Shown here piece by piece: positions 3,287-21,324 of a stretch of DNA of 64,000 bases (the stretch's first letter is position 1; the number at the start of each line of letters is the position of its first letter). Position numbers and translations under genes: made by a program. Source of the DNA: Escherichia coli (lineage in GTDB: Bacteria > Pseudomonadota > Gammaproteobacteria > Enterobacterales > Enterobacteriaceae); the NCBI RefSeq assembly GCF_030013595.1, contig NZ_CP122768.1, one strand, 5' to 3'. The notes under the pieces were generated by a model. That model ran no database searches. It had not been told where the DNA came from and saw only the letters and a list, made by a program, of their open reading frames with translations.

Positions 3287-5293
3287 TCACTCTTCGCCAA
3301 TTTTCAGAACTTTCAGAGCTTCCGGCTGTGCTACAACGTAGTCCAAATCTACAAAGATACGAGGCACTACCGCACCACGGTCACGGTATGTAGTTAGATC
3401 CATATCCAGTTCCAGACCGCCCCACTCACCGATGGTAATACCGGAGAAGTCACCCAGAACGATGTGGTCTGCCGGAATAACGCCAGAAGTAACTACTTCG
3501 TAACCAGCCAGTTTGCCGTTTTCGATGATATAACCGGAAACGCCGTTATCTTTCAGGGTAGATTCCAGTTCGGCAGCAGTTGCACCGCTCATTGCAAACT
3601 TGATCGCCTGAGCAGGAACGCCAGCGTCGGTCAGTGCTGCAATTTCTTTCAGGAAGTCTTTATAAGAGAAAGCAGCTTTCTTGGTAACGCGGCTAGCGTC
3701 TACCAGTTGCTTAACCAGACCAGCCGGACCACGAGCATTTTCTTTATCAGACAGAATCAGTTGTTCCAGTTTGATACGAACAGCTTTGTTAATGTGATCA
3801 GTGATCAGGGTAGCGATGCCCGGAACGGTTTTCAGCGACTGACGGCTGATCGGGTTGCCACCAGCAAAAGTTTTCGGAGACAGTTTCACGTTCGCAAATT
3901 CAGCTTTGCTTTCCGGTGCAGCACCGTTTTCATCAACGAAGCCGAAAGCGTCAACGCTGGAAGCGGTCATTTTTGGAATAGCGGTCGGGGAGTTCAAGCC
4001 ACTGTAAACAGTCACACCCAGACGACCCAGACACGAAGCAGGAAGCAGCATTTCGATGTAGGATTCAGTCATCAGTTTTTCGTCAGTGATAGCGGTCAGG
4101 TCGGCTTTGGTGTTACCAGCAGAAGCAGCACGCAGAGCAGCAGCCGGAACGAATACAGAGCCACCACGAGCAGCACGACCACGCTGCATAGTTGCAGTAG
4201 CAGCCATTGCGGAATATTCAGCTTCGTTAGCGCCGAGCACGTCGCCATCTACCAGGGAGCGGATTACGTTATTAAGATCGAAAGTTTTTTCCATGATTTG
4301 TTCCTTATTAATTTGTTCGTTATTACGTTGAGCATTGGTAATGTTATTTAGTGCCTTAGTGCGGAATGCTTCCGGCGTCATGTCTTTAATTGCCAATGCG
4401 CGTGCTAATTCAGAGTCATCAATATTTAGTTCGCGTGCAATTTCGCGAATTTCTAATTCGTCTTCTTCGGAACGTTCAGCCACTTCCTCGGTTTTTTCTT
4501 CTTCAACCGGAGCGGCTTCACGTTCTTCTTTTACTTCTTCTGTTTCCCGAACAGTTGAACTATCATCATCAACACTTTCAGGATGTTCAGCGTCTTTTCC
4601 GTCTTCGAGATTTTCATCTTCTTTATTCTCTTCAACTTGGCGCTCTTGAGTTTCTTCAACTTCCGGTTCTTTATTTTCTTCTACCGGAGTTTCTTCAACC
4701 TGAGCGGCTTCTTGTTCTTCTTTGATTTCTTCGATTTGTTCTTTAGTCATATCGCGTTTAGCCCCCAAATTAACTGTGATAGTATTTAGAGAGCGATTTA
4801 AACCGACCGTATCGTCTGCGGGCACCGACACCCATGAAATCTCGTGAGGAATCCATTTAGAAACAATGAGTTGCGATTTAGCGTAGTCGATGTGATATTC
4901 TTTAATGTCATAACCGACAGAAATTTTTTCCATCGTACCTTCAATGACTTTATTGCGAATATCATTAGCCAAAGTGCCATGCTTAGAGAATCTAACGGTC
5001 GCACGGCCTACGTTATCCGCATCGATTCGAGCGTTACAAACGACACCAATGTGATTATCGAAATTGTGATTGAACAGCAACGGAGCGTTATTATTCAGAC
5101 GAGACAGATCAACCGCTTCCGGTGTATGTACCAGAATTTCATCTAATACCACCATTTCTTGATTTTGCTCATCCCAAAATTGGCGCTGATAAGGCTGTGT
5201 ACTTGAGAAAGCAATTTCAAATTCGTATTGATCGTTATGCCCTTCATTAATAACTCCACCGTAACCGTTAAGATCGCGGCGAAATTTAAGCAT
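3287..5293 (-). CDS. Prohead protease / scaffold-like acidic linker / major capsid protein fusion (HK97-like), 668 aa
   Basis: ORF track; N-terminal ~170 aa protease-like (LLFNHNFDNHIGVV), central Glu/Lys-rich repeat segment, C-terminal ~370 aa capsid-like; SD AAAGGTGA. Confidence 0.7.
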   Translation of the reverse strand: MLKFRRDLNGYGGVINEGHNDQYEFEIAFSSTQPYQRQFWDEQNQEMVVLDEILVHTPEAVDLSRLNNNAPLLFNHNFDNHIGVVCNARIDADNVGRATVRFSKHGTLANDIRNKVIEGTMEKISVGYDIKEYHIDYAKSQLIVSKWIPHEISWVSVPADDTVGLNRSLNTITVNLGAKRDMTKEQIEEIKEEQEAAQVEETPVEENKEPEVEETQERQVEENKEDENLEDGKDAEHPESVDDDSSTVRETEEVKEEREAAPVEEEKTEEVAERSEEDELEIREIARELNIDDSELARALAIKDMTPEAFRTKALNNITNAQRNNEQINKEQIMEKTFDLNNVIRSLVDGDVLGANEAEYSAMAATATMQRGRAARGGSVFVPAAALRAASAGNTKADLTAITDEKLMTESYIEMLLPASCLGRLGVTVYSGLNSPTAIPKMTASSVDAFGFVDENGAAPESKAEFANVKLSPKTFAGGNPISRQSLKTVPGIATLITDHINKAVRIKLEQLILSDKENARGPAGLVKQLVDASRVTKKAAFSYKDFLKEIAALTDAGVPAQAIKFAMSGATAAELESTLKDNGVSGYIIENGKLAGYEVVTSGVIPADHIVLGDFSGITIGEWGGLELDMDLTTYRDRGAVVPRIFVDLDYVVAQPEALKVLKIGEE

Positions 5294-5338
5294 TTAATCA
5301 CCTTTAATTAATTGGGGGCATTGCGCCCCCGTTGGTTA

Positions 5339-6850
5339 TTAGGGATCGGCTGGGGAATTTTTTTCTTCACCCTCGCCATCAACGATAATATTTAGTGCGC
5401 TCTTTTCGGCTTGAATCTCTGAGAATACTTTTTCAGGATCATCACCACGTTCAAGAATAACGGCAGTACGTGATTTAAGTCCTTTATCAATTAAAGCAAT
5501 CTCGGCGCTTACGTCTTTAAATGGATCGACGGATTCAAAACGAGGACGAATAATAGTAGTGTTGTCGATAATATGCGGAATTGCAGTAATACGAATCGGA
5601 ACAATACCACGCGCGGAATAATGGCGTAGATATGCTTCGAAAATTGGCAATACCACTGTTTCAATCAATTTGTTTTGCAGTGCTTTAACTCGTGTGCGCT
5701 GGGTTAATTCACCGAAACGTGCGGCTGAGTAGTTGATCTGGCTAGTATCACCAGTCAAGCCCTGTTTAAACACGCCTAAGCCCATTGATACGCTAGTAAA
5801 CATCGCATCATTGAAGCTGTTAAAGTCATCACCGCTTTGCGTCGCCTGGATGCTCTTGATCGTTGCCCCTTCCGGCAATTCCTGAATAGTACCCGGTGCA
5901 AAATCCTGTACTACTTCCGGCGCTTGATATTGTTCATCCTCTTCACCAGTATCAAAATCGTCACCAGAATCTTTCGGACGTTCGATAAAGCCCATAGAAC
6001 TAGCCGCAATACGTTTCTGGACGATCGCAGTTTCGCGGAATGCGTCTTGATGTGCGATATCCTTAATCACTGGCAGGAAATCAGTCACACCACGCAGGGA
6101 TTCAGACGCAAGTGGTTGATAATAATGGAATACTTGCGAAGCATCGACGCGATAGTTATCACCTGTGTAAGTCTGAGTCAGTAGGTTGATTTTACGAAAC
6201 CAATATGCAACAGGGCGCATTGTTTCTACGTCATACTCGATCCCCTGATAGATAGCACGTTCTTTGCTTATTTCACGGTTTAGCGACCAGTCGCACTTAT
6301 CAGCAGACAGGATGGAAACATTTAACTCATTGTTTTCTTTGGTTAAAACGATGAAGCACTCACCACCCATAACGCGCTCACGTTCAGCCATTACCAGCAG
6401 TTCACGGAAGTTAAAGCGACCGTTACGAGAGAAGCGTTTAGCGTTCTGCGCCCACTTCCAGAAAGCATTCTCGATCTGCTTATTCAGTGCGCTATCAAGT
6501 TTGCCATTTGATTTAACGATTGACGGCTTCGGATCTAGGCCAGTACCTACCACCATATCGGTGATGTATTGCGTGTAGCGACTGCCAACGGAAGTGTTTA
6601 AGGCCAGAGTACGACCCTGATCATAAAGGCGCTCACCGTTCGATTTGAGAGCCTTATTGAAGGTTCCTGTAATGGTGTCTTGTTGAAGTGATCCATCAAT
6701 ACGATCACCAACCAGTCCTAAACTACGAGTCGCCAGAGATTTCTGGTATCTTTCTATAGATTTGTCGATGAAAATTTTTGGTTGTTGCTGGCGGTGATTA
6801 GTTTTAACTGGAGTTTCTACCGCCTTTTTGCGTCGAAAAAGATTAAACAT
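5339..6850 (-). CDS. Portal protein, 503 aa (family not determined)
   Basis: ORF track; size and position between terminase and protease-capsid gene; acidic C-terminus; AAGGGG SD. Confidence 0.6.
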   Translation of the reverse strand: MFNLFRRKKAVETPVKTNHRQQQPKIFIDKSIERYQKSLATRSLGLVGDRIDGSLQQDTITGTFNKALKSNGERLYDQGRTLALNTSVGSRYTQYITDMVVGTGLDPKPSIVKSNGKLDSALNKQIENAFWKWAQNAKRFSRNGRFNFRELLVMAERERVMGGECFIVLTKENNELNVSILSADKCDWSLNREISKERAIYQGIEYDVETMRPVAYWFRKINLLTQTYTGDNYRVDASQVFHYYQPLASESLRGVTDFLPVIKDIAHQDAFRETAIVQKRIAASSMGFIERPKDSGDDFDTGEEDEQYQAPEVVQDFAPGTIQELPEGATIKSIQATQSGDDFNSFNDAMFTSVSMGLGVFKQGLTGDTSQINYSAARFGELTQRTRVKALQNKLIETVVLPIFEAYLRHYSARGIVPIRITAIPHIIDNTTIIRPRFESVDPFKDVSAEIALIDKGLKSRTAVILERGDDPEKVFSEIQAEKSALNIIVDGEGEEKNSPADP

Positions 6851-7427: not shown

Positions 7428-9332
7428 TTAGAACGATGTTACCCAGCTACGGCCTCTATTTGGGCGTCTGACGATGTTTTGACGTTGTGGTCGTGTGATT
7501 GGCTTAGTTTCTTCGATTTGCTCGTCAGATTGCGATTTAGGAGCTTCTACAGGTTCTTCTGGTTCACGGTTCAAACTATCTTTGATGGCTTCGAGTTTTT
7601 CCCATGACATTTTATTGAGTACATGACGAGAAGCAGCATAGGAATAAGCCAGGCAGTCCAACGCTTCGTTTCGTGTTTGTCCAACTTTTACCCAACGTGT
7701 GGTATTACCCTGCCGTTTCAACTGTTCAGAAAGCAATTGCTCGCAATAGTCATCAGGAACGTCACCAATCTGGAAGACAGTGTGAGGATCGCCATCTCTC
7801 AAGTTCCGGTTAATCATTTCACGGATCATCGTTTTAAGGTTGTTTACGCCCAGAATTTTAAGGGTAAAACCACCCGTTCTTGTGTCTTTTACCGGAAGGA
7901 TTGGTGCATCAACATTGCTTGCGCCTTTAATGGCGGTTAGATTTTGCCACCGACTACAGAATCGATAGATCACGTTTGTAGCTCGTCCGTTCGATGAGTC
8001 CACGAAAGCAGATAACATCGGGATTCGTTCACCGGATCGGGTATAGAATTTAGCTTTCAGGAAGTTGTAAAGCTGGTTATATGCTGGTGATTCGTGGCGT
8101 TCGCAGTTCACATCATAGAATGATCGGTGATCAACTACGCATAGCCCTTTACGAGAAATACCCAGCAAGGTAGATTCCAGACGGTCTTTTTGCTGGTCAA
8201 CTCCACCTACCAGAGCCAGTACATCATCAGGAATATTGTCTAGGCTAATATCAGTTTTCAGCGTTTCTAATTCGTCGGCTGTGCGGTCTTCGTTAAGATC
8301 ATCGAAGGTTTCACCGAGGACTGTATTGTAGAACGTTGCCAGGGACATATTCGCGTAGCTATCAGCAAAGTCCACCACACACGCACGGATAGAACTAAAC
8401 GGAGACATAAGGCGGTTAGCATGAAAACCGATTACTTCCGCGTTTGGTTCGGTGGCGACCCATTCTCCCTGTCCAACAGCACGTAGGCGATCACCCTCGG
8501 TCCAATCGGTTTCACATTCAGGGCAACGGTAAACGGCTGTATCTGGGTTGGGTAATGATTTACCGTTAATCGTATGCCAATCGAAATGTACGTTACTCCA
8601 TTCCATTACGTGCTTGTGTCCGCAATGCTGGCAAACGACATGATATTTTCTCTTATCCGAGAGTTCCCATTGTTGGTTAATCGCCCCATCACGAGCGGTT
8701 GGAGTGGAAGCAATTACGATCCTTGCATCTTCCCCGAAAGTGGTTGCGCGTTGTTCCGCTAGTTGGATCGGGTTCCCTTCGTCTGACTCATCAGCCGCAT
8801 CAACTTCATCAAGAATAATCAAAGGGAGTGTTTTACCGCGAAGATGTGACGGACTATTCAACGACATGAAATACATAAACGATCCGTTACGAAGCTGAAT
8901 AATCGATGAGTTGTTAACGGCATTGCGATCTGATTTGTCGGTGATCATCGCCTTTAATTCTGGTGTTGCCTCTAATACTGGCTTCACCTTACCAGCGATC
9001 CAAGAATTTAGTTCTCTAACGTTACTTTGCAACACCCCAATATTAGTAGGGTTACTCGCGATCCGATGGAAGATAATTCCGTTAAGAATCATGGTCTTAC
9101 CCAACTGTGCCGAACATTTAAACACAATTTTTCTACGGTCTTCGGTGATCGCGTCCATCATTCCACGTTGGAAGGGATGCAATTTAATTAGCGATCCGGC
9201 TTTAACACCATCGGTTGCAACTACATTAGCCTCTACCCATTCGCTAGGTTTCATCGTTTTAGGTGGGCGAATTGCCGCAGAGATATTTTTAAGAATCTTT
9301 TTTAATTTTGCCTTGTTCGAAATCAGTTTCAT
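7428..9332 (-). CDS. Terminase large subunit, lambda GpA family, 634 aa
   Basis: ORF track; recalled lambda gpA similarity: ..HPFQRGMMDAI.. near N-terminus, Walker-A-like KCSAQLGKT, C-terminal RNEALDCLAYSYAA matching gpA RNEALDCFVYALAA. Confidence 0.85.
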   Translation of the reverse strand: MKLISNKAKLKKILKNISAAIRPPKTMKPSEWVEANVVATDGVKAGSLIKLHPFQRGMMDAITEDRRKIVFKCSAQLGKTMILNGIIFHRIASNPTNIGVLQSNVRELNSWIAGKVKPVLEATPELKAMITDKSDRNAVNNSSIIQLRNGSFMYFMSLNSPSHLRGKTLPLIILDEVDAADESDEGNPIQLAEQRATTFGEDARIVIASTPTARDGAINQQWELSDKRKYHVVCQHCGHKHVMEWSNVHFDWHTINGKSLPNPDTAVYRCPECETDWTEGDRLRAVGQGEWVATEPNAEVIGFHANRLMSPFSSIRACVVDFADSYANMSLATFYNTVLGETFDDLNEDRTADELETLKTDISLDNIPDDVLALVGGVDQQKDRLESTLLGISRKGLCVVDHRSFYDVNCERHESPAYNQLYNFLKAKFYTRSGERIPMLSAFVDSSNGRATNVIYRFCSRWQNLTAIKGASNVDAPILPVKDTRTGGFTLKILGVNNLKTMIREMINRNLRDGDPHTVFQIGDVPDDYCEQLLSEQLKRQGNTTRWVKVGQTRNEALDCLAYSYAASRHVLNKMSWEKLEAIKDSLNREPEEPVEAPKSQSDEQIEETKPITRPQRQNIVRRPNRGRSWVTSF

Positions 9333-9423
9333 GTAATTACCCTCATTACGAAATATGAAGGTATTTATTAAATTGTTGATATTTTGATAAATATGGGTAT
9401 TAAGGCAGAGTTCTTTATGTCGG

Positions 9424-9453
9424 TTGACGATGGAGAACTTTTTCCGATAAAAT
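9424..9453 (+). promoter_or_regulatory. Candidate sigma70 promoter for the 77-aa gene
   Basis: TTGACG, ~17 bp spacer, ATAAAA/TAAAAT about 45 bp upstream of the start codon. Confidence 0.4.
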
Positions 9454-9498
9454 GTAAGTCCTCTAAATAAAGGTGAACATTCACTTTAATTTGGAGAA

Positions 9499-9732
9499 AT
9501 GACTATGACTACTAAAGCTACTCGCGGTCGCCCTGCCCGTTATACTCGTGAACAGATGGCTGATATTGCCTACGCTTACTATACAGCGGATCGCGGGAAG
9601 GAAGCGAAAGAACAGATTCTTAGTGAACATGGGATTTCAGTAGCCCAATTCTATAAGAATATGAAGAAGTTAGACATTAAATTCTATGTTCAGATCGATG
9701 ACGGTCAGATCGTAGAAGCAACAGGTTTTTGA
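9499..9732 (+). CDS. Small putative DNA-binding protein, 77 aa (paralog of 13446..13628)
   Basis: ORF track; N-terminal RGRPARYTRE motif shared with the second small protein (ARPVKFTRE); own promoter and terminator. Confidence 0.45.
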   Translation: MTMTTKATRGRPARYTREQMADIAYAYYTADRGKEAKEQILSEHGISVAQFYKNMKKLDIKFYVQIDDGQIVEATGF

Positions 9733-9740
9733 TTCTCTTT

Positions 9741-9764
9741 GCCACTCTTCGGAGTGGCTTTTTT
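9741..9764 (+). terminator. Rho-independent terminator of the 77-aa gene
   Basis: GCCACTCTTCGGAGTGGC followed by TTTTTT. Confidence 0.6.
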
Positions 9765-9792
9765 GTATCTAAGTTATTGATTTTCTCGAACT

Positions 9793-9835
9793 TCACAATT
9801 TGTGGGAGTCGGGAAACATCCACAATTTGTGGGAG
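9793..9835. repeat. Two direct copies of CACAATTTGTGGGAGT (27-bp period), each with an 11-bp palindromic core CACAA-T-TTGTG
   Basis: Read directly; lies between two convergent terminators. Confidence 0.6.
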
Positions 9836-9844
9836 TTGGATAGT

Positions 9845-9872
9845 AAAAAGCCCCACCATTACGGCAGGGCTT
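9845..9872 (-). terminator. Rho-independent terminator of the 183-aa gene
   Basis: Minus-sense AGCCCTGCCGTAATGGTGGGGCT followed by TTTTT. Confidence 0.55.
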
Positions 9873-9876
9873 CTAA

Positions 9877-10428
9877 TCAGATTCCGAAGATGTCACATAG
9901 GTCGGCTGTGTGGCGTTCTTGTTTTGAATAGTAAATCCGTTCAGCTTCATATAACGTGATAGAATCATCATTAACGACGGTTTCAAACTCCCCTTCTATT
10001 ACCCTTTCTGTGTGCGCTTTACTGCGTAATTCGGCCTCTTCCATGCGATATAAGCCAATACAGATACTACCATATACACCATATTTTTTCTCGTCGAGAT
10101 GGCGACGACCTTTGCGTTGTTCGAACGGAAGATCGTAAGCGGTTATCTTTTTGCGGCGAACTCGATCATATCCACTCTCTTTGGCATCAATCATCATACT
10201 AATCAACATCCCACATTTAACAAGGGATTCAAGGCACTGACGAATAGAATTAGTTCTTGATTGTTTTAATTCTGGGTTAGGATCGTAATATGGATTATCT
10301 ATCCATGATTCATGAATAAGGAAATGTACGTCATCAGCCGTTAAAGGCCAACCACCAACACTTTCAACATCGGTCTTAGTACAATCAAACAGATCCAGAA
10401 TGAATTTCTTTTTGTGCGTCATTTTCAT
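9877..10428 (-). CDS. Hypothetical protein, 183 aa
   Basis: ORF track; last gene of a four-gene minus-strand operon; no family recognised. Confidence 0.45.
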   Translation of the reverse strand: MKMTHKKKFILDLFDCTKTDVESVGGWPLTADDVHFLIHESWIDNPYYDPNPELKQSRTNSIRQCLESLVKCGMLISMMIDAKESGYDRVRRKKITAYDLPFEQRKGRRHLDEKKYGVYGSICIGLYRMEEAELRSKAHTERVIEGEFETVVNDDSITLYEAERIYYSKQERHTADLCDIFGI

Positions 10429-10523
10429 AATGTTCTATCCTCAAAATACTTAAAAAGTACCATGCCGATTTTCGCGGCATGGTCAAAAAATCACCATACA
10501 CCCAATGGGCGTTTGGTTAAAAA

Positions 10524-11363
10524 TTAGATACCAAAGACAGCAAGTGATCCGGCGTTCTTACGAATCAATGCGGCGGTATTATTAACGATTGCACGAGCAT
10601 TGTTAGGCTGCGGTAATTTCAAAGTTGCTATCGTCTCTTCCTCAATCAAGCCCAATTCAACCAGCACTGGTAAACAGTCAGTTGTGAACTCAAGCTGACC
10701 ATGTGCTGATTGTCGGGCATACATGTAAGCAGGAGGAAGAACATCATAGCCACAAGGCTTACCAGAAGCATCCAGACGGCGCTCAATGTGTTTAGCCTCA
10801 CACAATCCCTTAAGAATACGTTGTACCTTCGTAGAGCCTCGTTTTTCGCCCAATAAGCGGGTTAAGCTGTGCCCGTCAATGGCACGGCGAACATGAAGAT
10901 CAATTAATTGTTCTTTTTCTTCCGCTAAAGTCAGAGCCTTACGAATCCAATCAACTTCGGTCATCTTGCTTGCGTCTGGGAAAGCGTTATTCTTTAATTC
11001 TTCATTTTCTTTCTTCAAACGCTGCCATTCATCAACCAGCATTGCGGTATAAACCGGATCGGTCTGTGCGATAACAATGTAGCTATCACGTTCAGTCAGA
11101 AGATAAACTTCAATTGGTTTGCCTTTACGGCCTAAACGGTCAGTTTTTGACCAAAACGCCACTGGCGGTTTGGTTACAATTTGAGCTTCAACCAGACGAT
11201 CAACCGTTCTCATAATATCGGTGTGACGGTTTTCACGCCCCATTAGTTCAGCAATACGCCAGGTAGAAATTGATAATTCTTTCTCTACAGAGTCATTTGC
11301 AGCAGTCAGGTCAACAGAAGAAGCAGTTTTAACAGCAGTATTCATAGTAGTAACAGTATTCAT
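10524..11363 (-). CDS. Rha-family phage regulatory protein (antirepressor-like), 279 aa
   Basis: ORF track; N-terminal ..STWRIAELMGRENRHTDIMRTVDRL.. resembles the Rha-domain pattern (recalled); C-terminal domain unrecognised. Confidence 0.5.
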   Translation of the reverse strand: MNTVTTMNTAVKTASSVDLTAANDSVEKELSISTWRIAELMGRENRHTDIMRTVDRLVEAQIVTKPPVAFWSKTDRLGRKGKPIEVYLLTERDSYIVIAQTDPVYTAMLVDEWQRLKKENEELKNNAFPDASKMTEVDWIRKALTLAEEKEQLIDLHVRRAIDGHSLTRLLGEKRGSTKVQRILKGLCEAKHIERRLDASGKPCGYDVLPPAYMYARQSAHGQLEFTTDCLPVLVELGLIEEETIATLKLPQPNNARAIVNNTAALIRKNAGSLAVFGI

Positions 11364-11451
11364 AGTAGTAATTCCCCTTTCGGTTTAGTGATATTGATCC
11401 TCCTAGTTCCGGCATCACCACCGGAACATTTTTATTTATGATAGAAATTTA

Positions 11452-11784
11452 TTACCAATCGATTTCTACTTGGTCTTCTTCATAATAAGGAATCGCATAT
11501 TCATAACGCCAATTTTCGATGATTTCACGTTCTTCATTAGTAAGAAGGTGATTGTTAACTGGAGTCGCATTGTGATTACCAGCTTCGAATTGCTCGCGAA
11601 CTTCCAGCATTGCATGAATACCAGTTAAGGACATCAGATCAAACGGAACATGCATACTACGGGAGATTGTTTCACGGGATACGCCCCAATCATTTTCTAC
11701 ATGGCTAGGGGTTACAGAAACGGTTTTGCCGGAGATTTTAACAGTCCAGTCATACAGGGATTTAGTGATGGTAAATTCTTTCAT
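11452..11784 (-). CDS. Hypothetical protein, 110 aa
   Basis: ORF track; directly downstream of a consensus promoter. Confidence 0.4.
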   Translation of the reverse strand: MKEFTITKSLYDWTVKISGKTVSVTPSHVENDWGVSRETISRSMHVPFDLMSLTGIHAMLEVREQFEAGNHNATPVNNHLLTNEEREIIENWRYEYAIPYYEEDQVEIDW

Positions 11785-11825
11785 GTTACATCCTCTTTAC
11801 AAATCTAGGTCAAATAGGTTCAAAG

Positions 11826-11883
11826 TTGTCAAGTGCGATAATCATAAAAAAGTTTGAAGATATTGTCAAATACCACTTGACAA
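11826..11883 (-). promoter_or_regulatory. Consensus sigma70 promoter (TTGACA-17-TATGAT, minus strand) bracketed by a 10-bp inverted repeat TTGTCAAGTG / CACTTGACAA
   Basis: -35 at plus 11864-11869, -10 at plus 11841-11846; inverted-repeat arms at 11826-11835 and 11874-11883. Confidence 0.5.
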
Positions 11884-11905
11884 GACACCAAAGGGTTGAC
11901 CTAAC

Positions 11906-12094
11906 TTACAGCATATCTAAGCCTTCATCGTAACCGTAGAAGCCATTCTGAGAAGAGAAGCAGATTGGTGCGTAGTCGTCGTCATCTTCGTCTTGTTCAT
12001 CTTGTTCTGGGGCTTCCTGAGCGGTTTCTTTGCCGTAGTTAAACATGGCTTCATCCAGTTCATAGTGGAAATCCTCTAAAAGAAAGTGAATCAA
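11906..12094 (-). CDS. Small strongly acidic protein (62 aa from TTG; 46 aa from internal ATG); frame uncertain
   Basis: ORF track (TTG start); acidic run EAPEQDEQDEDDDDY; an alternative overlapping frame has the better SD. Confidence 0.25.
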   Translation of the reverse strand: MIHFLLEDFHYELDEAMFNYGKETAQEAPEQDEQDEDDDDYAPICFSSQNGFYGYDEGLDML

Positions 12095-12700
12095 TCTAAT
12101 ATTATTTATAAAGAGAAAATTCTTGTTATTATGAAAGGAGTGATCTGGTAGAGTCCAAAACTGGTCTGTACTTGAAAGGTGATTGGATTCAGTCGGGCAA
12201 AGCCCTCCTTCATGTTTTGATTAAATCATCATCAAAACGAAGAAGTATCTTTAGAATATAAGATCTTTCTTTTGGAGAAATAATAATCAGGAAGCAATTT
12301 GGCAACCGAAGGTTGCAATCCCGAAGGGATAACCAATACCTTTCTAGAAAGTGATTGTTACTCACTTCGTTCGTTTACTAGAATCAGTTATCATCTGGTA
12401 TTAAATCCCTTTCTAAGAAAATCCTTTCAAAAGTGATTCTCGATGCCACGCAGTGGCGTCGCAGACGTTTGGGAGTGAGCGAAGCGAGCGAGCAAACTAG
12501 TTAATTCCTTCTAAGACCATCTAGTATCATCTAGTTTAAATTAGTTGTTACTAGAAGCAATTGGTTGGCGCTTCGCGCAGTCGGGCTAAAGCCCTCCTAA
12601 TTATCTTTTTGGTTATTTGTTGTTTTTAGTTTTACACATGAGCGTAGCGAATGTGTTATATAATATCTATGCACGCCCAATCCCCCGCTTTTTCCCCTCA
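12095..12700. other. ~600 bp hairpin-dense non-coding region (candidate structured RNA or DNA-level origin/packaging signals)
   Basis: No ORF; many short-loop hairpins (GCAACC-GAA-GGTTGC, ATCCC-GAA-GGGAT, GCCAC-GCA-GTGGC, GCGC-TTC-GCGC); CTAG-rich; ~20-bp direct repeats CAGTCGGGC(T)AAAGCCCTCCT at ~12190-12209 and ~12578-12598. Confidence 0.5.
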
Positions 12701-12743
12701 CTAAGTTAATGTTTTATAAAGAGTTTTTCTCACCAATCCTTTT

Positions 12744-12931
12744 CGGGGGCAAATTTCAGGGGCAAAAATTAGATTTTCAGGGGCAAAAATAGTGGGTTTC
12801 AGGGGCAAAAATGAGGGGCAAAATCACTGTTTCCCAGAATTTCAGGGGCAAAAATAGTGGGTTTCAGGGGCAAAAATGGGATGTGGAATCTAGGGGATTT
12901 TGGTTCAGGGGCAAAATTCAGGGGCAATTTT
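12744..12931 (+). repeat. Iteron array: 9 copies of (TTCA)GGGGCAAAAAT, including an exact 38-bp duplication
   Basis: Read directly; copies at ~12746, 12759, 12780, 12802, 12815, 12845, 12867, 12908, 12921; 38-mer TTCAGGGGCAAAAATAGTGGGTTTCAGGGGCAAAAATG at 12777 and 12841. Confidence 0.85.
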
Positions 12932-12968
12932 CATAGTGTAGGGCTAGTGTAGGTTTGAAAATCCTTTG

Positions 12969-13025
12969 TTGACACTGTGTAGGATCGGTGGTATACTTGA
13001 AAATTCGAGATAAATATGTTATAAT
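12969..13025 (+). promoter_or_regulatory. Tandem near-consensus sigma70 promoters next to the iterons
   Basis: P1 TTGACA (12969-12974), 17 bp, TATACT (12992-12997); P2 TTGAAA (12997-13002), 17 bp, TGtTATAAT (13017-13025). Confidence 0.55.
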
Positions 13026-13171
13026 ATTTGTATTGAAAGTGAAAATTTACCGATTTTCCTTCCTATTGTTATCACCGTGTTAAATTGTTATATGTCTGTG
13101 AAGATTTGGATCTGAGAGAAAATCTTGTAACAAATCTTTACAATTCATAGCTCAATTAATGCTCACCGCTT

Positions 13172-13310
13172 TAGCAAAAAGTGCTATGCCTTTTTCTAAA
13201 TTGATTGAATATACATCAATTTGGTTAAATCGTGTTCTTCGCTTTAGCAATTCGTGCTGTGGTTTAACACATTTAACACGTCTGATAACATCTGAATAAC
13301 ATTTTAACAT
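13172..13310 (+). promoter_or_regulatory. Operator-like palindromes and phased TAACAY repeats upstream of the 60-aa gene
   Basis: TAGCAaaaagTGCTA (13172-13186) and TAGCAattcgTGCTg (13245-13259); five TAACAC/TAACAT copies at ~10-11 bp spacing in 13264-13310. Confidence 0.45.
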
Positions 13311-13445
13311 ATCTCTGTTATAAATACATATATAAGAGATAAATGTGAGGGGTTGAAAAATAAAATACAATCCCATATAAATAATAGTGAGCGGTTAACG
13401 CTCTTTTTTAAGAAATCATTAATCCACATTGTAGGAGGATTCGAG

Positions 13446-13628
13446 ATGGCACGACCTGTTAAGTTCACTCGCGAAATCATCTTAGAAATGGCTAAACGCT
13501 ACTTTGAGTTAACGCCGGGTGTGAGAATTGAAGAGTGGTTTAAAAATGAGGGCATCGATAAATCAACCTTTCATAAACTGCTAAAACGATATGACATTAA
13601 AGTGAAGATTGAAGCTACCGTTTGGTAA
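13446..13628 (+). CDS. Small putative DNA-binding protein, 60 aa (paralog of 9499..9732)
   Basis: ATG with AGGAGGA SD inside tracked ORF 13353..13628 (which begins at TTG); MARPVKFTRE motif. Confidence 0.5.
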   Translation: MARPVKFTREIILEMAKRYFELTPGVRIEEWFKNEGIDKSTFHKLLKRYDIKVKIEATVW

Positions 13629-13742
13629 TCAACTTTGACTGAGAATTATATGATGGCTTTAAAAAAGAAAAAGCCTCCTTTGCTGCAACAAGGGAGGCTT
13701 GAAATGAACAATTAAAACTAACTTTCCATAGGAGTATTTATA

Positions 13743-14684
13743 ATGTTATTTTCCGCTAACTTTTTCACTAACGAAGTAACCAACGCTAAAGCAGTTATCA
13801 AATTTGGCACCGAAGCAAACAAGAAGATTCAGCCGAAAGTTGTTGCTCATGTTTCCTTTGCGCAGCAGAAATCCGCTTTCGCTGGCTTTAAAGCACATCG
13901 TGAAGCACTGATCGCGGCTGGCTTTGGTGTTGACGGTAAACTGCCTAACGGCATTCGTAAAGCAATCGACCGCGTTAAACCAGTTAAAGACGTTGCAGTA
14001 GACCACATCGTTACTTTTACCGTTAAGAACTCTTCTGAACTGTTCCACCTGGTTATTGCTGGTGATACTGCTATCGTTTCCGCTCCTAACATGGATTTTC
14101 AGGATACCGCTGATTGCCAGATCACCTTCGGTCGTCGTAAAGAAGTTACCGGAAAAGCTAAACTGAACTTCACTAAATCCGGCAATCCTTACTTTGCTGT
14201 ATTCTTTAACAGCCACGCTACCGAAAAAGAAGTTGTAGAACTGGTTGCTTATGAAGGTGAAGAGAAAGAACGTATTGAATCTTGCGAAGCATTTCTGGAA
14301 CTGGAAGCACAGGTGAATGCTGTTTCTCCGGTTGTTGAAGATCGCTTTGCTGCACTGGAAGCACAGATCGCAGAACTGAAAGCTGCACTGGAAGAAAAAG
14401 ACCAGATTATCGAAGCACAGAAAGCTGAGATTGAAGAACTGAAAGCTAAAGAAGTTGCTCCGGTGGCAGTAGTTGAAAACGCGGCTGATGAGGCCGCAAA
14501 TGATGAAGTAGAAGTGAAAATCGATGTGATGCGTGATCCGATGGCTGCACTGCAATTACTTCGTTCTTTTAAGGGCAAATCTCATTTTTCTAGTGATGTA
14601 GAAGATGAGGAAGAAGAACAGAAACGCAATGCTGCAATGCTTCATGATGAAATGTACGGTACTAACTTTTCTTACTGCCAATAA
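13743..14684 (+). CDS. Hypothetical protein, 313 aa: unrecognised N-terminal domain, coiled-coil, acidic C-terminal tail
   Basis: ORF track; AGGAG SD; heptad-like ALEAQIAELKAALEEKDQIIEAQKAEIEELKAKE; no NTPase or nuclease motif seen. Confidence 0.5.
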   Translation: MLFSANFFTNEVTNAKAVIKFGTEANKKIQPKVVAHVSFAQQKSAFAGFKAHREALIAAGFGVDGKLPNGIRKAIDRVKPVKDVAVDHIVTFTVKNSSELFHLVIAGDTAIVSAPNMDFQDTADCQITFGRRKEVTGKAKLNFTKSGNPYFAVFFNSHATEKEVVELVAYEGEEKERIESCEAFLELEAQVNAVSPVVEDRFAALEAQIAELKAALEEKDQIIEAQKAEIEELKAKEVAPVAVVENAADEAANDEVEVKIDVMRDPMAALQLLRSFKGKSHFSSDVEDEEEEQKRNAAMLHDEMYGTNFSYCQ

Positions 14685-14968: not shown

Positions 14969-15253
14969 TTATTTAGTCTGTTTGAAAACGAACGTTAAAA
15001 ATTCGATTAAGCAATATACCCAAAGTACGGTCAGCATCAAATGCATAGCAATAGTTGGATGGAAGTTAAAAAGTGTCATACTAACTAGGCCAACAATATA
15101 AGAAATTCCTTCGACAATTAACGCAAGGCTAGCAAATGCAACAAACGCACCTAAGAATAATTCGCCTCGTTCTTTCGGTTCGGTTCCGAGTTTATAAGCA
15201 GAGATAGCAGCCAGAATAGTAATGATGACAGCATAGGTAATAAAAGTAGCCAT
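14969..15253 (-). CDS. Small membrane protein, 94 aa (three predicted TM helices)
   Basis: ORF track; AAGAGGA SD; hydrophobic segments separated by charged loops. Confidence 0.5.
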   Translation of the reverse strand: MATFITYAVIITILAAISAYKLGTEPKERGELFLGAFVAFASLALIVEGISYIVGLVSMTLFNFHPTIAMHLMLTVLWVYCLIEFLTFVFKQTK

Positions 15254-15345: not shown

Positions 15346-15903
15346 TTAAGACACATCAAATTCATCGTCTTCTTCTGGTTCTTGTTCTTCCGGTTCATCC
15401 ATTAATGGTAATTCTTCTTCCTCGTCTTCTCCCAAATCTGCATTTTCGAACAAGTCCCCTACTTCATTTAAACGACGCTCGATGATCTCCCTTAGCTTAT
15501 TCTTTAATGTTTTCTGGTCATTGGCAGATTCGAGAATTTCTAGGGCATCGATCGTACAAATCTGCAAAATAGTCTGCTTCACTTTCCCGCAATATTCCGC
15601 TAGTTGCTGTTCTACATAACCGACAGGAATCAGGAGGTTCATTTTTTCCTGATTCTCTCGTTCGGCTGCATCTGCCATTGCTCTTTCTCTGCGGAGACGT
15701 TCTTGATCAATCGCTTCTTTGATTGAAGTTTGTTTAAGTGGGTTAATTACGTTCTTTAGCACCCAATCGCAACCTTCCTTTGCCGGAACACGCCTCTTAT
15801 TGGTATTGTAAGGTAGTCCCCTTTCTAACCATCGCTTACCGCCACCATTCAATGTATAGCCATATAAACGGGAAATTTCTGTAAGGGTTAATTCTTCTTT
15901 CAT
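15346..15903 (-). CDS. Nu1-like small terminase subunit candidate (winged-HTH protein with acidic C-terminus), 185 aa
   Basis: ORF track; strong GGAGGA SD; GGGK and W.ERGLP motifs loosely like lambda Nu1 (recalled); first gene inside the element boundary. Confidence 0.4.
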   Translation of the reverse strand: MKEELTLTEISRLYGYTLNGGGKRWLERGLPYNTNKRRVPAKEGCDWVLKNVINPLKQTSIKEAIDQERLRRERAMADAAERENQEKMNLLIPVGYVEQQLAEYCGKVKQTILQICTIDALEILESANDQKTLKNKLREIIERRLNEVGDLFENADLGEDEEEELPLMDEPEEQEPEEDDEFDVS

Positions 15904-16394: not shown

Positions 16395-16724
16395 TTATTG
16401 GGGTTTACAACATTTAGGTTTGCCAATTCGTCTGGCTAACTCTTGCTGAGTGATTTCTGACTGTAAAAAAGCATTTAACAGCAATACCTTAGAGGCGACA
16501 CTCAAAGGCACTTCAATAAAGTGATCGTGACTATTTAATGGCGAAGGTAACGGGATAAGCTCGTTATCTTCAAAATAAAAATCAAATGCGGTCAGTAAAG
16601 CATCTTTTGCCGCTTCCATCGCTTCAGCAACTGTTTCGCCCTGGGTCAACGCTTCAGGGATATCCACAAAAGAAACCATATAACCGCCTTCCGGCGCGGG
16701 TGTAAGAGTGACGGGATAACGCAT
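16395..16724 (-). CDS. hicB: HicB antitoxin, C-terminally truncated at the element junction
   Basis: Matches recalled K-12 HicB from MRYPVTLTPAPEGGYMV.. through ..ARRIGKPK, then 5 non-native codons (CCKPQ) and a stop; C-terminal DNA-binding domain missing. Confidence 0.7.
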   Translation of the reverse strand: MRYPVTLTPAPEGGYMVSFVDIPEALTQGETVAEAMEAAKDALLTAFDFYFEDNELIPLPSPLNSHDHFIEVPLSVASKVLLLNAFLQSEITQQELARRIGKPKCCKPQ

Positions 16725-16769
16725 AATTTCGACTGTCTCTCGCATGTCATTAACCTTTTTAATTGGCGA

Positions 16770-16946
16770 TTAACTCAAACCGAGTTGCTTCAGGATTGCT
16801 TTACGCAATGGTTCTTTAATCTCATCGCAGGGGTGACGCGGCATGACACTGCGCCTCCCGTGAAACCTGAGTTTTAAATGGTTGCTGCCATTCGCTACAT
16901 CGACGCCCTGAGATTCGAGCCAACGTCTGAACTCGCTTTGTTTCAC
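16770..16946 (-). CDS. hicA: HicA mRNA-interferase toxin, 58 aa, GTG start
   Basis: Hand translation VKQSEFRRWLESQGVDVANGSNHLKLRFHGRRSVMPRHPCDEIKEPLRKAILKQLGLS; below the ORF-track size cut-off. Confidence 0.7.
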   Translation of the reverse strand: MKQSEFRRWLESQGVDVANGSNHLKLRFHGRRSVMPRHPCDEIKEPLRKAILKQLGLS

Positions 16947-20151: not shown

Positions 20152-21324
20152 ATGCGTCTGTTTTCTATTCCTCCACCCACGCTACTGGCGGGGTTTCTGG
20201 CGGTATTAATTGGCTACGCCAGTTCAGCGGCAATAATCTGGCAAGCAGCGATTGTCGCCGGAGCCACCACTGCACAAATCTCTGGCTGGATGACGGCGCT
20301 GGGGCTGGCAATGGGCGTCAGTACGCTGACTCTGACATTATGGTATCGCGTACCTGTTCTCACCGCATGGTCAACGCCTGGCGCGGCTTTGTTGGTCACC
20401 GGATTACAGGGACTAACACTTAACGAAGCCATCGGCGTTTTTATTGTCACCAACGCGTTAATAGTCCTCTGCGGCATAACGGGACTCTTTGCTCGTCTGA
20501 TGCGCATTATTCCGCACTCGCTTGCGGCGGCAATGCTTGCCGGGATTTTATTACGCTTTGGTTTACAGGCGTTTGCCAGTCTGGATGGTCAATCTACGTT
20601 GTGTGGAAGTATGTTGCTGGTATGGCTGGCAACCAAGGCCGTTGCGCCGCGCTATGCGGTAATTGCCGCGATGATTATTGGGGTCGTGATCGTTATCGCG
20701 CAAGGTGACGTTGTCACAACTGATGTTGTCTTTAAACCCGTTCTCCCCACTTATATTAGCCCTGATTTTTCGTTTGCTCACAGCCTGAGCGTTGCACTCC
20801 CCCTTTTTCTGGTGACGATGGCATCGCAAAACGCACCGGGTATCGCAGCAATGAAAGCCGCCGGATATTCAGCTCCTGTTTCGCCATTAATTGTATTTAC
20901 TGGATTGCTGGCACTGGTTTTTTCCCCTTTCGGCGTTTATTCCGTCGGTATTGCGGCAATCACCGCGGCTATTTGCCAAAGCCCGGAAGCGCATCCGGAT
21001 AAAGATCAACGTTGGCTGGCAGCTGCCGTTGCCGGCATTTTCTATTTGCTCGCAGGTTTGTTTGGTAGTGCCATTACCGGGATGATGGCTGCCCTGCCCG
21101 TAAGTTGGATCCAGATGCTGGCAGGTCTGGCGCTGTTAAGTACCATTGGCGGCAGTTTGTATCAGGCGCTGCATAATGAGCGTGAGCGAGACGCGGCGGT
21201 GGTGGCATTTCTGGTAACGGCAAGTGGATTGACGCTGGTCGGGATTGGTTCTGCGTTCTGGGGATTAATTGCCGGAGGCGTTTGTTACGTGGTGTTGAAT
21301 TTAATCGCTCACAGAAACCGATAA
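20152..21324 (+). CDS. ydcO: BenE-family inner-membrane transporter, 390 aa
   Basis: ATG at 20152 (MRLFSIPPP..) inside tracked ORF 20029..21324; polytopic membrane protein. Confidence 0.7.
   Translation: MRLFSIPPPTLLAGFLAVLIGYASSAAIIWQAAIVAGATTAQISGWMTALGLAMGVSTLTLTLWYRVPVLTAWSTPGAALLVTGLQGLTLNEAIGVFIVTNALIVLCGITGLFARLMRIIPHSLAAAMLAGILLRFGLQAFASLDGQSTLCGSMLLVWLATKAVAPRYAVIAAMIIGVVIVIAQGDVVTTDVVFKPVLPTYISPDFSFAHSLSVALPLFLVTMASQNAPGIAAMKAAGYSAPVSPLIVFTGLLALVFSPFGVYSVGIAAITAAICQSPEAHPDKDQRWLAAAVAGIFYLLAGLFGSAITGMMAALPVSWIQMLAGLALLSTIGGSLYQALHNERERDAAVVAFLVTASGLTLVGIGSAFWGLIAGGVCYVVLNLIAHRNR

Follow-up and report, generated by a model that had tools for sequence, protein, structure and literature searches.

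Two small paralogous proteins in the end region of a prophage

In a 64,000-nucleotide (nt) stretch of Escherichia coli DNA (contig NZ_CP122768.1 of assembly GCF_030013595.1; the whole of this stretch is referred to below as the window), two open reading frames on the plus strand encode the small proteins P1 and P2, which lie on either side of an array of direct repeats (iterons), P2 being followed by the gene of a larger protein, designated D (Table 1). Positions 1 to ~16412 represent one end of a prophage, the remainder being E. coli chromosome. A reading made from the sequence alone had proposed that P1 and P2 are duplicated small DNA-binding regulators of 77 and 60 amino acids (aa), each with its own promoter, and candidates for binding the iterons or neighbouring operator-like repeats as part of a switch. 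Thirty-six loci were compared (the window, the relative ES2, four Salmonella/Edwardsiella contigs, 30 IMG/VR prophages and a T4-like contig), and the P2 allele, D (i.e. the protein encoded after P2) and the dominant upstream repeat were tabulated for each locus.

The paralogy of P1 and P2 was upheld by direct BLASTP alignment (32% identity over 56 aa, E=2e-9), by hmmsearch of one family against the other (E 1e-15 to 1e-11, as a single comparison) and by HHalign (probability 97.3%, E=2.7e-11), while the N- and C-terminal motifs quoted in the sequence-only reading (RGRP/ARP..F/YTRE and GI...F.K..K..DIK) proved to be conserved columns of a joint alignment of 32 sequences. The ratio of nonsynonymous to synonymous substitution rates (dN/dS) was mostly 0.04-0.35 for both proteins, indicating purifying selection (P1, 0.04-0.4, with one close pair at 0.78; P2, 0.04-0.35), and since these values are well below 1 both are considered to be real genes. 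The size of 60 aa stands for P2 (homologues of 59-60 aa), while P1 is shortened from 77 to 75 aa: the ribosome-binding GGAG at 9493-9496 is located 8 nt ahead of the ATG at 9505 and only 2 nt ahead of that at 9499, and all homologues (74-75 aa), as well as the RefSeq annotation, start with MTTKATRGRP.

An AlphaFold (AF2) model of P1, with a mean predicted local distance difference test score (pLDDT) of 80, displays a disordered basic RGRP arm, three helices (residues 15-27, 32-41 and 46-55) and a beta-hairpin (59-73), i.e. a fold of the helix-turn-helix (HTH) type. For P1 and P2 alike, the predicted domain consists of a basic N-terminal arm (RGRP/ARP), a three-helix homeodomain-like/Hin-like core and a short C-terminal beta-hairpin. 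Structural neighbours of P1 were weak and restricted to homeodomain-like DNA-binding domains (including Tc3, CENP-B and Brinker); Foldseek searches of the PDB returned nothing below E=0.5, and a profile search against PDB sequences produced no meaningful match. The best Pfam scores were those of P1 against HTH_7 (16.3 bits, E=0.011; gathering threshold 23.8 bits), with no match for P2, and of P2 against HTH_Tnp_1 (18.0 bits; threshold 24.1 bits), and neither a transposase gene nor ends of an insertion sequence (IS) were found near P1 or P2. No family in Pfam, PHROG, NCBIfam or PADLOC matched either protein above threshold. Specifically, HTH_3/XRE matches were absent in Pfam, PHROGs and NCBIfam, the structural neighbours were not lambda-repressor-like, and HTH_17 was not matched in Pfam.

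A profile search of 1.84 billion representative proteins identified only four small-protein lineages, namely P1, P2, a 64-aa protein on a T4-like phage contig and a 55-aa protein on short contigs, in addition to some long proteins composed of tandem IS3-OrfA-like HTH repeats. Named homologues, all 'hypothetical', derive from E. coli, Shigella, Salmonella and Edwardsiella. We are confident that P1 and P2 are HTH paralogues, and they constitute a new, narrow and unannotated family within the homeodomain-like HTH class, for which DNA binding is predicted; of the description as duplicated small DNA-binding regulators, the duplication and the predicted fold are retained, while the regulators are putative. 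The family represents one more small HTH group in phage 'dark matter', with very few relatives, and provides a handle on an uncharacterised prophage lineage.

Iteron type follows protein D

Five types of D N-terminal domain pair with five iteron sequences, without exception among the 36 loci: type A (MLFSANFF...) with TTCAGGGGCAAAAAT, type B (MKNSKRITFN...) with TAGTGTAGGTTT, type C (MKIESIIY...) with TTCAAATGCTAC, type E (MKQNNFSI...) with (A/G)CGGGGA (about 16 copies), and the D of the T4-like contig with TAGCGATTAC. The C-terminal part of D, a coiled coil and a conserved acidic tail, is common to the types. Identical P2 alleles were found with TTCAGGGGCAA iterons in loci L021 and L023 and with TAGTGTAGGTTT iterons in L022 and L024, such that L021/L022 and L023/L024 each combine a single P2 allele with type A and type B iteron/D sets, respectively. 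In sliding comparisons P2 appears as a 100%-identical island between divergent segments that co-vary, the iterons on its left and the D N-domain on its right. Because identical P2 alleles accompany different iteron/D types, P2 is not the iteron-specificity protein, and the earlier proposal that it binds the iterons had to be abandoned; the specificity protein is, judging from this co-variation, almost certainly D, and it is very probable that neither P1 nor P2 reads the iterons. That P1 and P2 flank the array is literally correct, but P1 is 3 kb removed from it, beyond four minus-strand genes, and is unlinked in relatives.

D is probably a replication initiator or another origin-type iteron binder, a role suggested because the direct repeats are mostly 13-22 bp apart (up to ~43 bp), because they adjoin the operon promoters on the upstream side and because the 36-kb genome of the lineage shows no other initiator candidate. 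A search for homologues of D returned, among the matches listed, only 99%-identical 'hypothetical' proteins. The assignment of the iterons to D, in five matched specificity types with P2 as the invariant partner, is testable, and these exchangeable pairs together with the conserved hairpin region described below represent more interesting biology than P1 and P2 themselves.

Type-specific sequences were also encountered outside the arrays. Three copies of GTGTAGG (the type-B iteron core) are located at 12936-12983, between the type-A array and the -35 element of the promoter at 12969; they are absent from some type-A relatives and appear to be left over from an exchange of specificity modules. 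TAGTGTAGG near the promoter was considered as a universal P2 site and rejected, as several type-A loci lack it and its sequence is that of the type-B iteron. Additionally, the terminator of the Rha operon, GCCCCTGAAATTCAGGGGCAAAAAT (21146-21175 of locus L002, and many IMG/VR loci), holds a perfect type-A iteron, also in prophages whose iterons and D are of type B.

The P2-D operon and its leader

P2, the conserved first gene of the P2-D operon, was always found directly upstream of D, and all 12 type-B D loci retrieved independently from IMG/VR were P2 loci. Because it always precedes D, also in the T4-like phage, P2 is regarded as belonging integrally to the module, whatever the type. From 420 nt upstream of the P2 start, two tandem sigma-70-like promoters close to the consensus (TTGACA-17-TATACT and TTGAAA-17-TATAAT; 11/12 consensus matches each, with an upstream TG in both) are directed towards P2-D, with a hairpin and T-run in between. 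The claim that each gene has its own promoter is not established, as 12 sigma-70-like sites in the region compare with 12.2 expected from shuffled sequences; furthermore, the site credited to P1 (TTGACG-18-TAAAAT, 9424-9453) is located inside the remnant of another gene, T200, and P1 is the second gene of an operon in relatives.

The operator-like palindromes, the phased TAACAY repeats and the twice-occurring CACAATTTGTGGGAGT, all pointed out by the sequence-only reading, are present and locally non-random: TAGCA-N5-TGCT(A/G) matches only at these two positions in 64 kb, and five TAACAY copies fall within 46 bp as compared to about one per kb elsewhere. The proximal CTTTAGCA-N5-TGCT copy is located ~135 nt before the P2 ATG in all E. 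coli and Salmonella loci. It is absent from Edwardsiella locus L012 and from the T4-like contig (L004), and since neither the Edwardsiella loci nor the T4-like cassette possess it, it is not a universal P2 target; as judged from sequence it is a possible P2 operator and the best candidate site. The TAACAY array occurs only in type II leaders, type I leaders carrying CCACTG-N10-CAGTGG instead. As the same P2 allele occurs with both types, which alternate between the palindrome and the TATAAATA block, the supposed tie between the TAACAY array and P2 is not supported.

Elements common to all E. coli/Salmonella P2 leaders are CTTTAGCA-N5-TGCT, the TTATAAATA(C/G)A block, the hairpin with its T-run and an ATCCA(C/G)A block. 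The hairpin, which is kept in relatives with the stem variants AGAGCGAAAAGCTCT and GAGCGAAACGCTC, is possibly an attenuator. At the P2-D intergenic position, the T4-like contig carries a hairpin of other sequence than that of the window. TATAAATA equals the consensus of T4 late promoters, and five copies in the 16.4-kb prophage part compare with one in the other 47.6 kb; four of the five are intergenic (three just upstream of a correctly oriented gene) and the fifth straddles the D start on the opposite strand. Together with ATAAATAC, present on the minus strand at 9368 in the TerL/T200 control region, these occurrences are suggestive of a phage-specific promoter class, the counts being too small to conclude.

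P1, T200 and the terminase control region

Of the 34 prophage loci compared with the window, 31 possess a two-gene operon, T200-P1, with P1 in second place and transcription diverging from the large terminase gene TerL. Two domains resembling P1/P2 were recognised in T200 (~200 aa), at residues 38-98 and 133-194 (HHalign probability 94-96%), and a typical relative of the ~36-kb prophage holds four copies of the domain, i.e. P2, P1 and the two in T200. In the window T200 has been deleted, the junction lying at a GGG(T)ATTAAG direct repeat and 29 3' codons being left. The 87-nt TerL/T200 intergenic region is nearly invariant across loci under either of two TerL types, and its two ATAAATA(C/T) -10-like elements point in opposite directions. 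Two Salmonella loci keep T200 and lack P1, while the Edwardsiella loci have neither at the TerL position and carry three extra paralogues just upstream of P2.

A second class of P1 alleles is accompanied by the terminator stem variant GGCCAATCCTTCGGGGTTGGCC. At the position of the CACAATTTGTGGGAGT repeats, relatives with a 93%-identical P1 carry different hairpin units, which removes the basis for tying these repeats to P1. No co-variation was found between P1 allele class and TerL type, Rha type, leader type or downstream repeats. The array that follows the P1 terminator (9780-9875; 21020-21175 in L002, and other loci) is composed of many units of the form stem-AAAACT-stem-(C/G)ATCT, whose number and stem sequences vary among otherwise near-identical prophages.

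The prophage lineage and neighbouring genes

Chromosomal homology begins at 16413, within hicB. The prophage is inserted inside this antitoxin gene (16395-16946), leaving HicB truncated at its C-terminus and hicA intact, and 31 complete E. coli genomes gave matches spanning the junction (at least 80% of the junction query). Related prophages were detected in 57 of 5,426 complete E. coli genomes (~1%), and the lineage also occurs in Salmonella, Shigella and Edwardsiella. The ES2 relative (~36 kb) is inserted in ycdX; it carries a large serine recombinase and a DEAD-box helicase at its far end and lysis, tail, capsid, portal and gpA-type large terminase genes all on one strand. Near-identical DNA to 9300-13800 was not found among INPHARED phages or PLSDB plasmids, and tblastn of P1, P2, the D N-domain and the D-like protein of the T4-like contig against phages and/or plasmids gave no match. 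A literature search for a described prophage at ycdX or hicB returned nothing relevant, the single Rfam match over 9000-14500 was at chance level, and NCBIfam and PADLOC had no hit to P1, P2, T200, D, the acidic-tailed protein U1 or neighbours.

Table 1. Features of the prophage end in the window, with positions as numbered from its first nucleotide.
Feature	Position	Strand	Remarks
TerL, large terminase	7428-9332	-	
Divergent TerL/T200-P1 control region	9333..9396	.	Two ATAAATA(C/T) -10-like elements ~29 nt apart
T200 3' remnant	9384..9470	+	29 aa matching the C-terminal end of ES2 T200 at 89% identity (tblastn)
P1	9505..9732	+	75-aa single-domain HTH protein (predicted); open reading frame; start at 9499 would give 77 aa
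Intrinsic terminator of (T200-)P1 unit	9741..9765	+	GCCACTCTTCGGAGTGGC plus T-run; conserved in relatives
Two CACAATTTGTGGGAGT repeats	9794..9836	+	In hypervariable mini-hairpin array between convergent terminators
183-aa gene	9877-10428	-	
Rha/Ant-like gene	10524-11363	-	
110-aa gene	11452-11784	-	
Strong promoter-like site	11869-11841	-	For the 183-aa, Rha/Ant-like and 110-aa genes
U1 remnant	about 12094	-	Acidic-tailed gene
Gene-free 1.3 kb	12100-13445		
Iteron array, type A	12742..12930	+	About 9 direct TTCAGGGGCAAAAAT copies
Two tandem near-consensus sigma-70-like promoters	12969..13025	+	Toward P2-D; directly downstream of iterons
Palindrome CGCTTTAGCA-N5-TGCT (two copies)	13167..13261	+	73 bp apart; candidate operator
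Five phased TAACAY direct repeats	13265..13310	+	Spacings 9, 12, 11, 8
TGTTATAAATACA block	13315..13327	+	-10-like; only invariant block upstream of P2 in all prophage loci compared
Hairpin and T-run (GAGCG-loop-CGCTC TTTTTT)	13389..13409	+	Between -10-like element and P2 ribosome-binding site
P2	13446..13628	+	60-aa single-domain HTH protein (predicted); open reading frame with AGGAGG ribosome-binding site
Stem-loop AGCCTCC...GGAGGCT	13672..13699	+	Between P2 stop and D start
D	13743..14684	+	313 aa; variable N-terminal domain, coiled coil, acidic tail
94-aa membrane protein	14969-15253	-	
Nu1-like small terminase	15346-15903	-	phrog_57 E=2.7e-11; faint Phage_Nu1 match
TATAAATA	12110(-), 13319(+), 13376(+), 13742(-), 15338(-)		

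The Nu1-like small terminase gene adjoins the attachment site, 6 kb from TerL, with the P1...P2-D block in between; this split of the packaging genes is unusual and kept in all relatives. Relative to its relatives, the prophage of the window has suffered two deletions, namely the loss of T200 and an internal deletion of U1 (about 12063) that joins the start codon out of frame to the 3' part and leaves a pseudogene, and it may be regulatorily crippled. ARAGORN called a 91-nt tRNA-Gln(ttg) at 2586-2676 on the plus strand, within the minus-strand structural gene block; this call, of odd length, may be false. In Edwardsiella locus L012 a reverse transcriptase-TIR gene (11413-13044) near the prophage end is probably defence cargo.

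Control of their own operons as the preferred proposal

We consider it a little less than even odds (a probability of roughly 0.45) that P1 and P2, together with T200, are sequence-specific regulators of their own operons, a proposal in which DNA binding, target sites and the sign of regulation are all inferred. In such a scheme, the P2-D operon would be read from the promoters just downstream of the iteron array, while the variable N-domain of D, and not P2, would read the iterons. P2 would regulate the operon, probably repressing it via the conserved leader DNA in combination with the attenuator-like hairpin, with CTTTAGCA-N5-TGCT as the best candidate site, and this repression would set the amount of D that is made. 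For P1, together with T200 where this is present, the site of action would be the 87-nt divergent region shared with the terminase/late operon, and hence late/packaging expression would be affected. The proposal is favoured by the homology and purifying selection of P1 and P2, by the constant place of P2 in the module irrespective of iteron type, by the conserved leader elements that could serve as operators or attenuators, and by the position of T200-P1 opposite TerL.

Several observations weigh against this proposal. No homology of P1 or P2 to a characterised regulator is detectable. The palindrome is invariant while helix-3 residues of P2 vary between alleles and, conversely, the Edwardsiella loci encode a P2 helix 3 identical to that of the window yet lack the palindrome; protein-site co-variation was found for neither P2 nor P1 among the loci compared. 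Given the conserved terminator-like hairpin that separates P2 from the promoters, control may operate largely at the RNA level. Furthermore, the P2-D module was not found in 72,556 plasmids and 50,697 phage records, and the presumed initiator function of D is that of a protein with no family or fold match.

The mini-hairpin region, a T4-like cassette and a possible role at the origin

To the left of the iterons, 600 nt of gene-free DNA (12100-12740) contain mini-hairpins with three- or four-base loops (GCCAC-GCA-GTGGC, GCGC-TTC-GCGC, GGGC-TAAA-GCCC and GAGCGAAGCGAGC). In Salmonella loci and the T4-like cassette, the adjacent GCGC-TTC-GCGC and GGGC-TAAA-GCCC have undergone compensatory changes that leave their stems intact. 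TGAGCGNAGCGA is confined to this region and always on the plus strand; it was present in nine of the 11 loci checked (not found in L012 and L019), 770-990 nt upstream of P2 or, in the T4-like cassette, 424 nt. The region had no Rfam match, and it could represent single-strand DNA priming signals or an RNA.

The T4-like contig (ERZ27275837 k141_13924, 168 kb) carries a 1.75-kb cassette (4894-6650) between T4-type genes 3 and 2, which shares recognisable DNA blocks with the prophage region and displays the order mini-hairpin region (4894-5200), TAGCGATTAC iterons, sigma-70 promoter, P2-like gene, stem-loop and D-like gene. Its genes encode a 64-aa P2-like, a 204-aa D-like and an 80-aa coiled-coil protein, and the cassette was not found in 50,697 INPHARED records. 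A P2-like gene is thus kept even in a virulent T4-like phage.

These features bear on an alternative in which P2 is an architectural or accessory origin factor that acts on the mini-hairpin region or the leader and assists D in origin opening or priming. Within the module, P2 and the hairpin region are conserved while iterons and the D N-domain are swapped; the compensatory changes and the strand-specific TGAGCGNAGCGA upstream of P2 fit such a role, and lysogeny control is irrelevant in a virulent phage. However, no direct link connects P2 to sequences of the hairpin region, helix 3 differs in the P2-like protein of the T4-like cassette, the normal ligand of an HTH domain is duplex DNA rather than a hairpin, and the initiator role of D is itself presumptive. 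On balance we consider an origin factor unlikely.

A bolder extension of operon control is that the P1/T200/P2 family constitutes the missing lysis-lysogeny circuitry of the lineage, the paralogues competing at related sites to toggle between the late/packaging and P2-D operons, with P2 additionally serving as the constant adaptor of a mobile cassette. It is put forward because no CI-, Cro- or XRE-type gene was found in the prophage lineage, whose early region contains no recognisable repressor, Cro or initiator gene; we regard it as improbable. If true, a mobile cassette consisting of the mini-hairpin region, iterons, P2 and D would swap iteron/initiator specificities around P2, and would have moved between temperate enterobacterial prophages and a virulent T4-like phage.

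Packaging, iteron binding and excision

T200 and P1 might alternatively be packaging-site recognition factors, i.e. small-terminase-like HTH proteins that work with the adjacent TerL. A GRPxxYTxE arm with an HTH behind it is a common feature at the N-terminus of small terminases, and a 71-aa Edwardsiella paralogue weakly matches PHROG 24579, 'terminase small subunit' (E=0.005). Against this, the prophage has a Nu1-like small terminase gene elsewhere (15346-15903), transcription of T200-P1 leads away from TerL, proteins of 60-75 aa are too small for a terminase oligomerisation core (typically >100 aa), and loci L009, L010 and L012, from which P1 is absent, keep the same TerL, making a packaging role very unlikely.

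That P1 and/or P2 bind the TTCAGGGGCAAAAAT iterons is scarcely credible, despite the closeness of P2 to the array and its predicted DNA-binding fold, in view of the allele pairs and the perfect co-variation of the D N-domain described above and of the remote P1, whose alleles do not track iteron type. Equally remote is a function of P1 or P2 as excisionase (recombination directionality factor) for the serine integrase, for which a small HTH with a wing-like hairpin (as in Xis, Cox and Apl), a distant relative (P0052) that adjoins an HTH_17 gene and a weak match of an Edwardsiella paralogue to an excisionase PHROG (E=0.005) might be cited: P2 is 100% identical in the prophages at hicB (window) and ycdX (ES2), which argues against a role matched to the integrase, the P2-like gene of the T4-like phage has no integrase nearby, and neither P1 nor P2 adjoins the recombinase, which is located at the far prophage end.

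Comparison with known systems

With respect to fold, P1 and P2 come closest to the C-terminal DNA-binding domain of Hin/resolvase proteins (HTH_7) and to the HTH of IS3/Tc1 transposases (HTH_Tnp_1, Tc3), their best, and in all cases sub-threshold, sequence matches, with which they share a length of ~50 residues and possibly, as far as predicted, a basic GRP-type arm followed by three helices. Unlike Hin and the resolvases they are free-standing, lacking a serine-recombinase catalytic domain, and possess a beta-hairpin added at the C-terminus; they occur in the context of a phage regulatory/replication region rather than of a recombinase. Cox of phage P2, Apl of phage 186 and Xis of lambda are small winged-helix switch-and-excision proteins that bind arrays of direct repeats phased by about one helical turn. 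P1 and P2 resemble them as small HTH proteins with a beta wing, and the TAACAY repeats have a similar phasing; however, their sequences do not match, the TAACAY array varies independently of the alleles of P2 and P1, and no link to integration-site specificity exists.

The T4 origin oriE combines evenly spaced direct repeats with the small early proteins RepEA and RepEB, which are implicated in origin function by an undefined mechanism (PMC3016281). The cassette of the T4-like contig is likewise a region of a T4-type phage with iterons and small proteins, but it differs in genomic position, and P1, P2 and the D-like protein of the cassette had no tblastn match in the 50,697 phage records, a set assumed to include T4.

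As to D, the closest parallel is offered by the lambdoid O initiators, which also possess a type-specific N-terminal domain that co-varies with the iterons and a C-terminal part common to the types. The iterons of lambda lie inside the O gene, whereas those of D are positioned ~0.8 kb upstream, beyond P2, and the two proteins show no homology. For P2, the parallel is provided by the small Cop-type repressors (such as CopR of pIP501 and CopF of pAMbeta1), which are encoded just upstream of plasmid rep genes. P2 has no sequence relationship to these proteins, is located downstream of the attenuator-like hairpin, and together with D is phage-borne and absent from plasmids; the arrangement is nevertheless alike, with a small DNA-binding protein (predicted as such for P2) encoded before the gene of an iteron- or origin-specific protein and a terminator-like attenuator (a putative one for P2) in the leader, and by analogy P2 may play a comparable role in setting the level of D.

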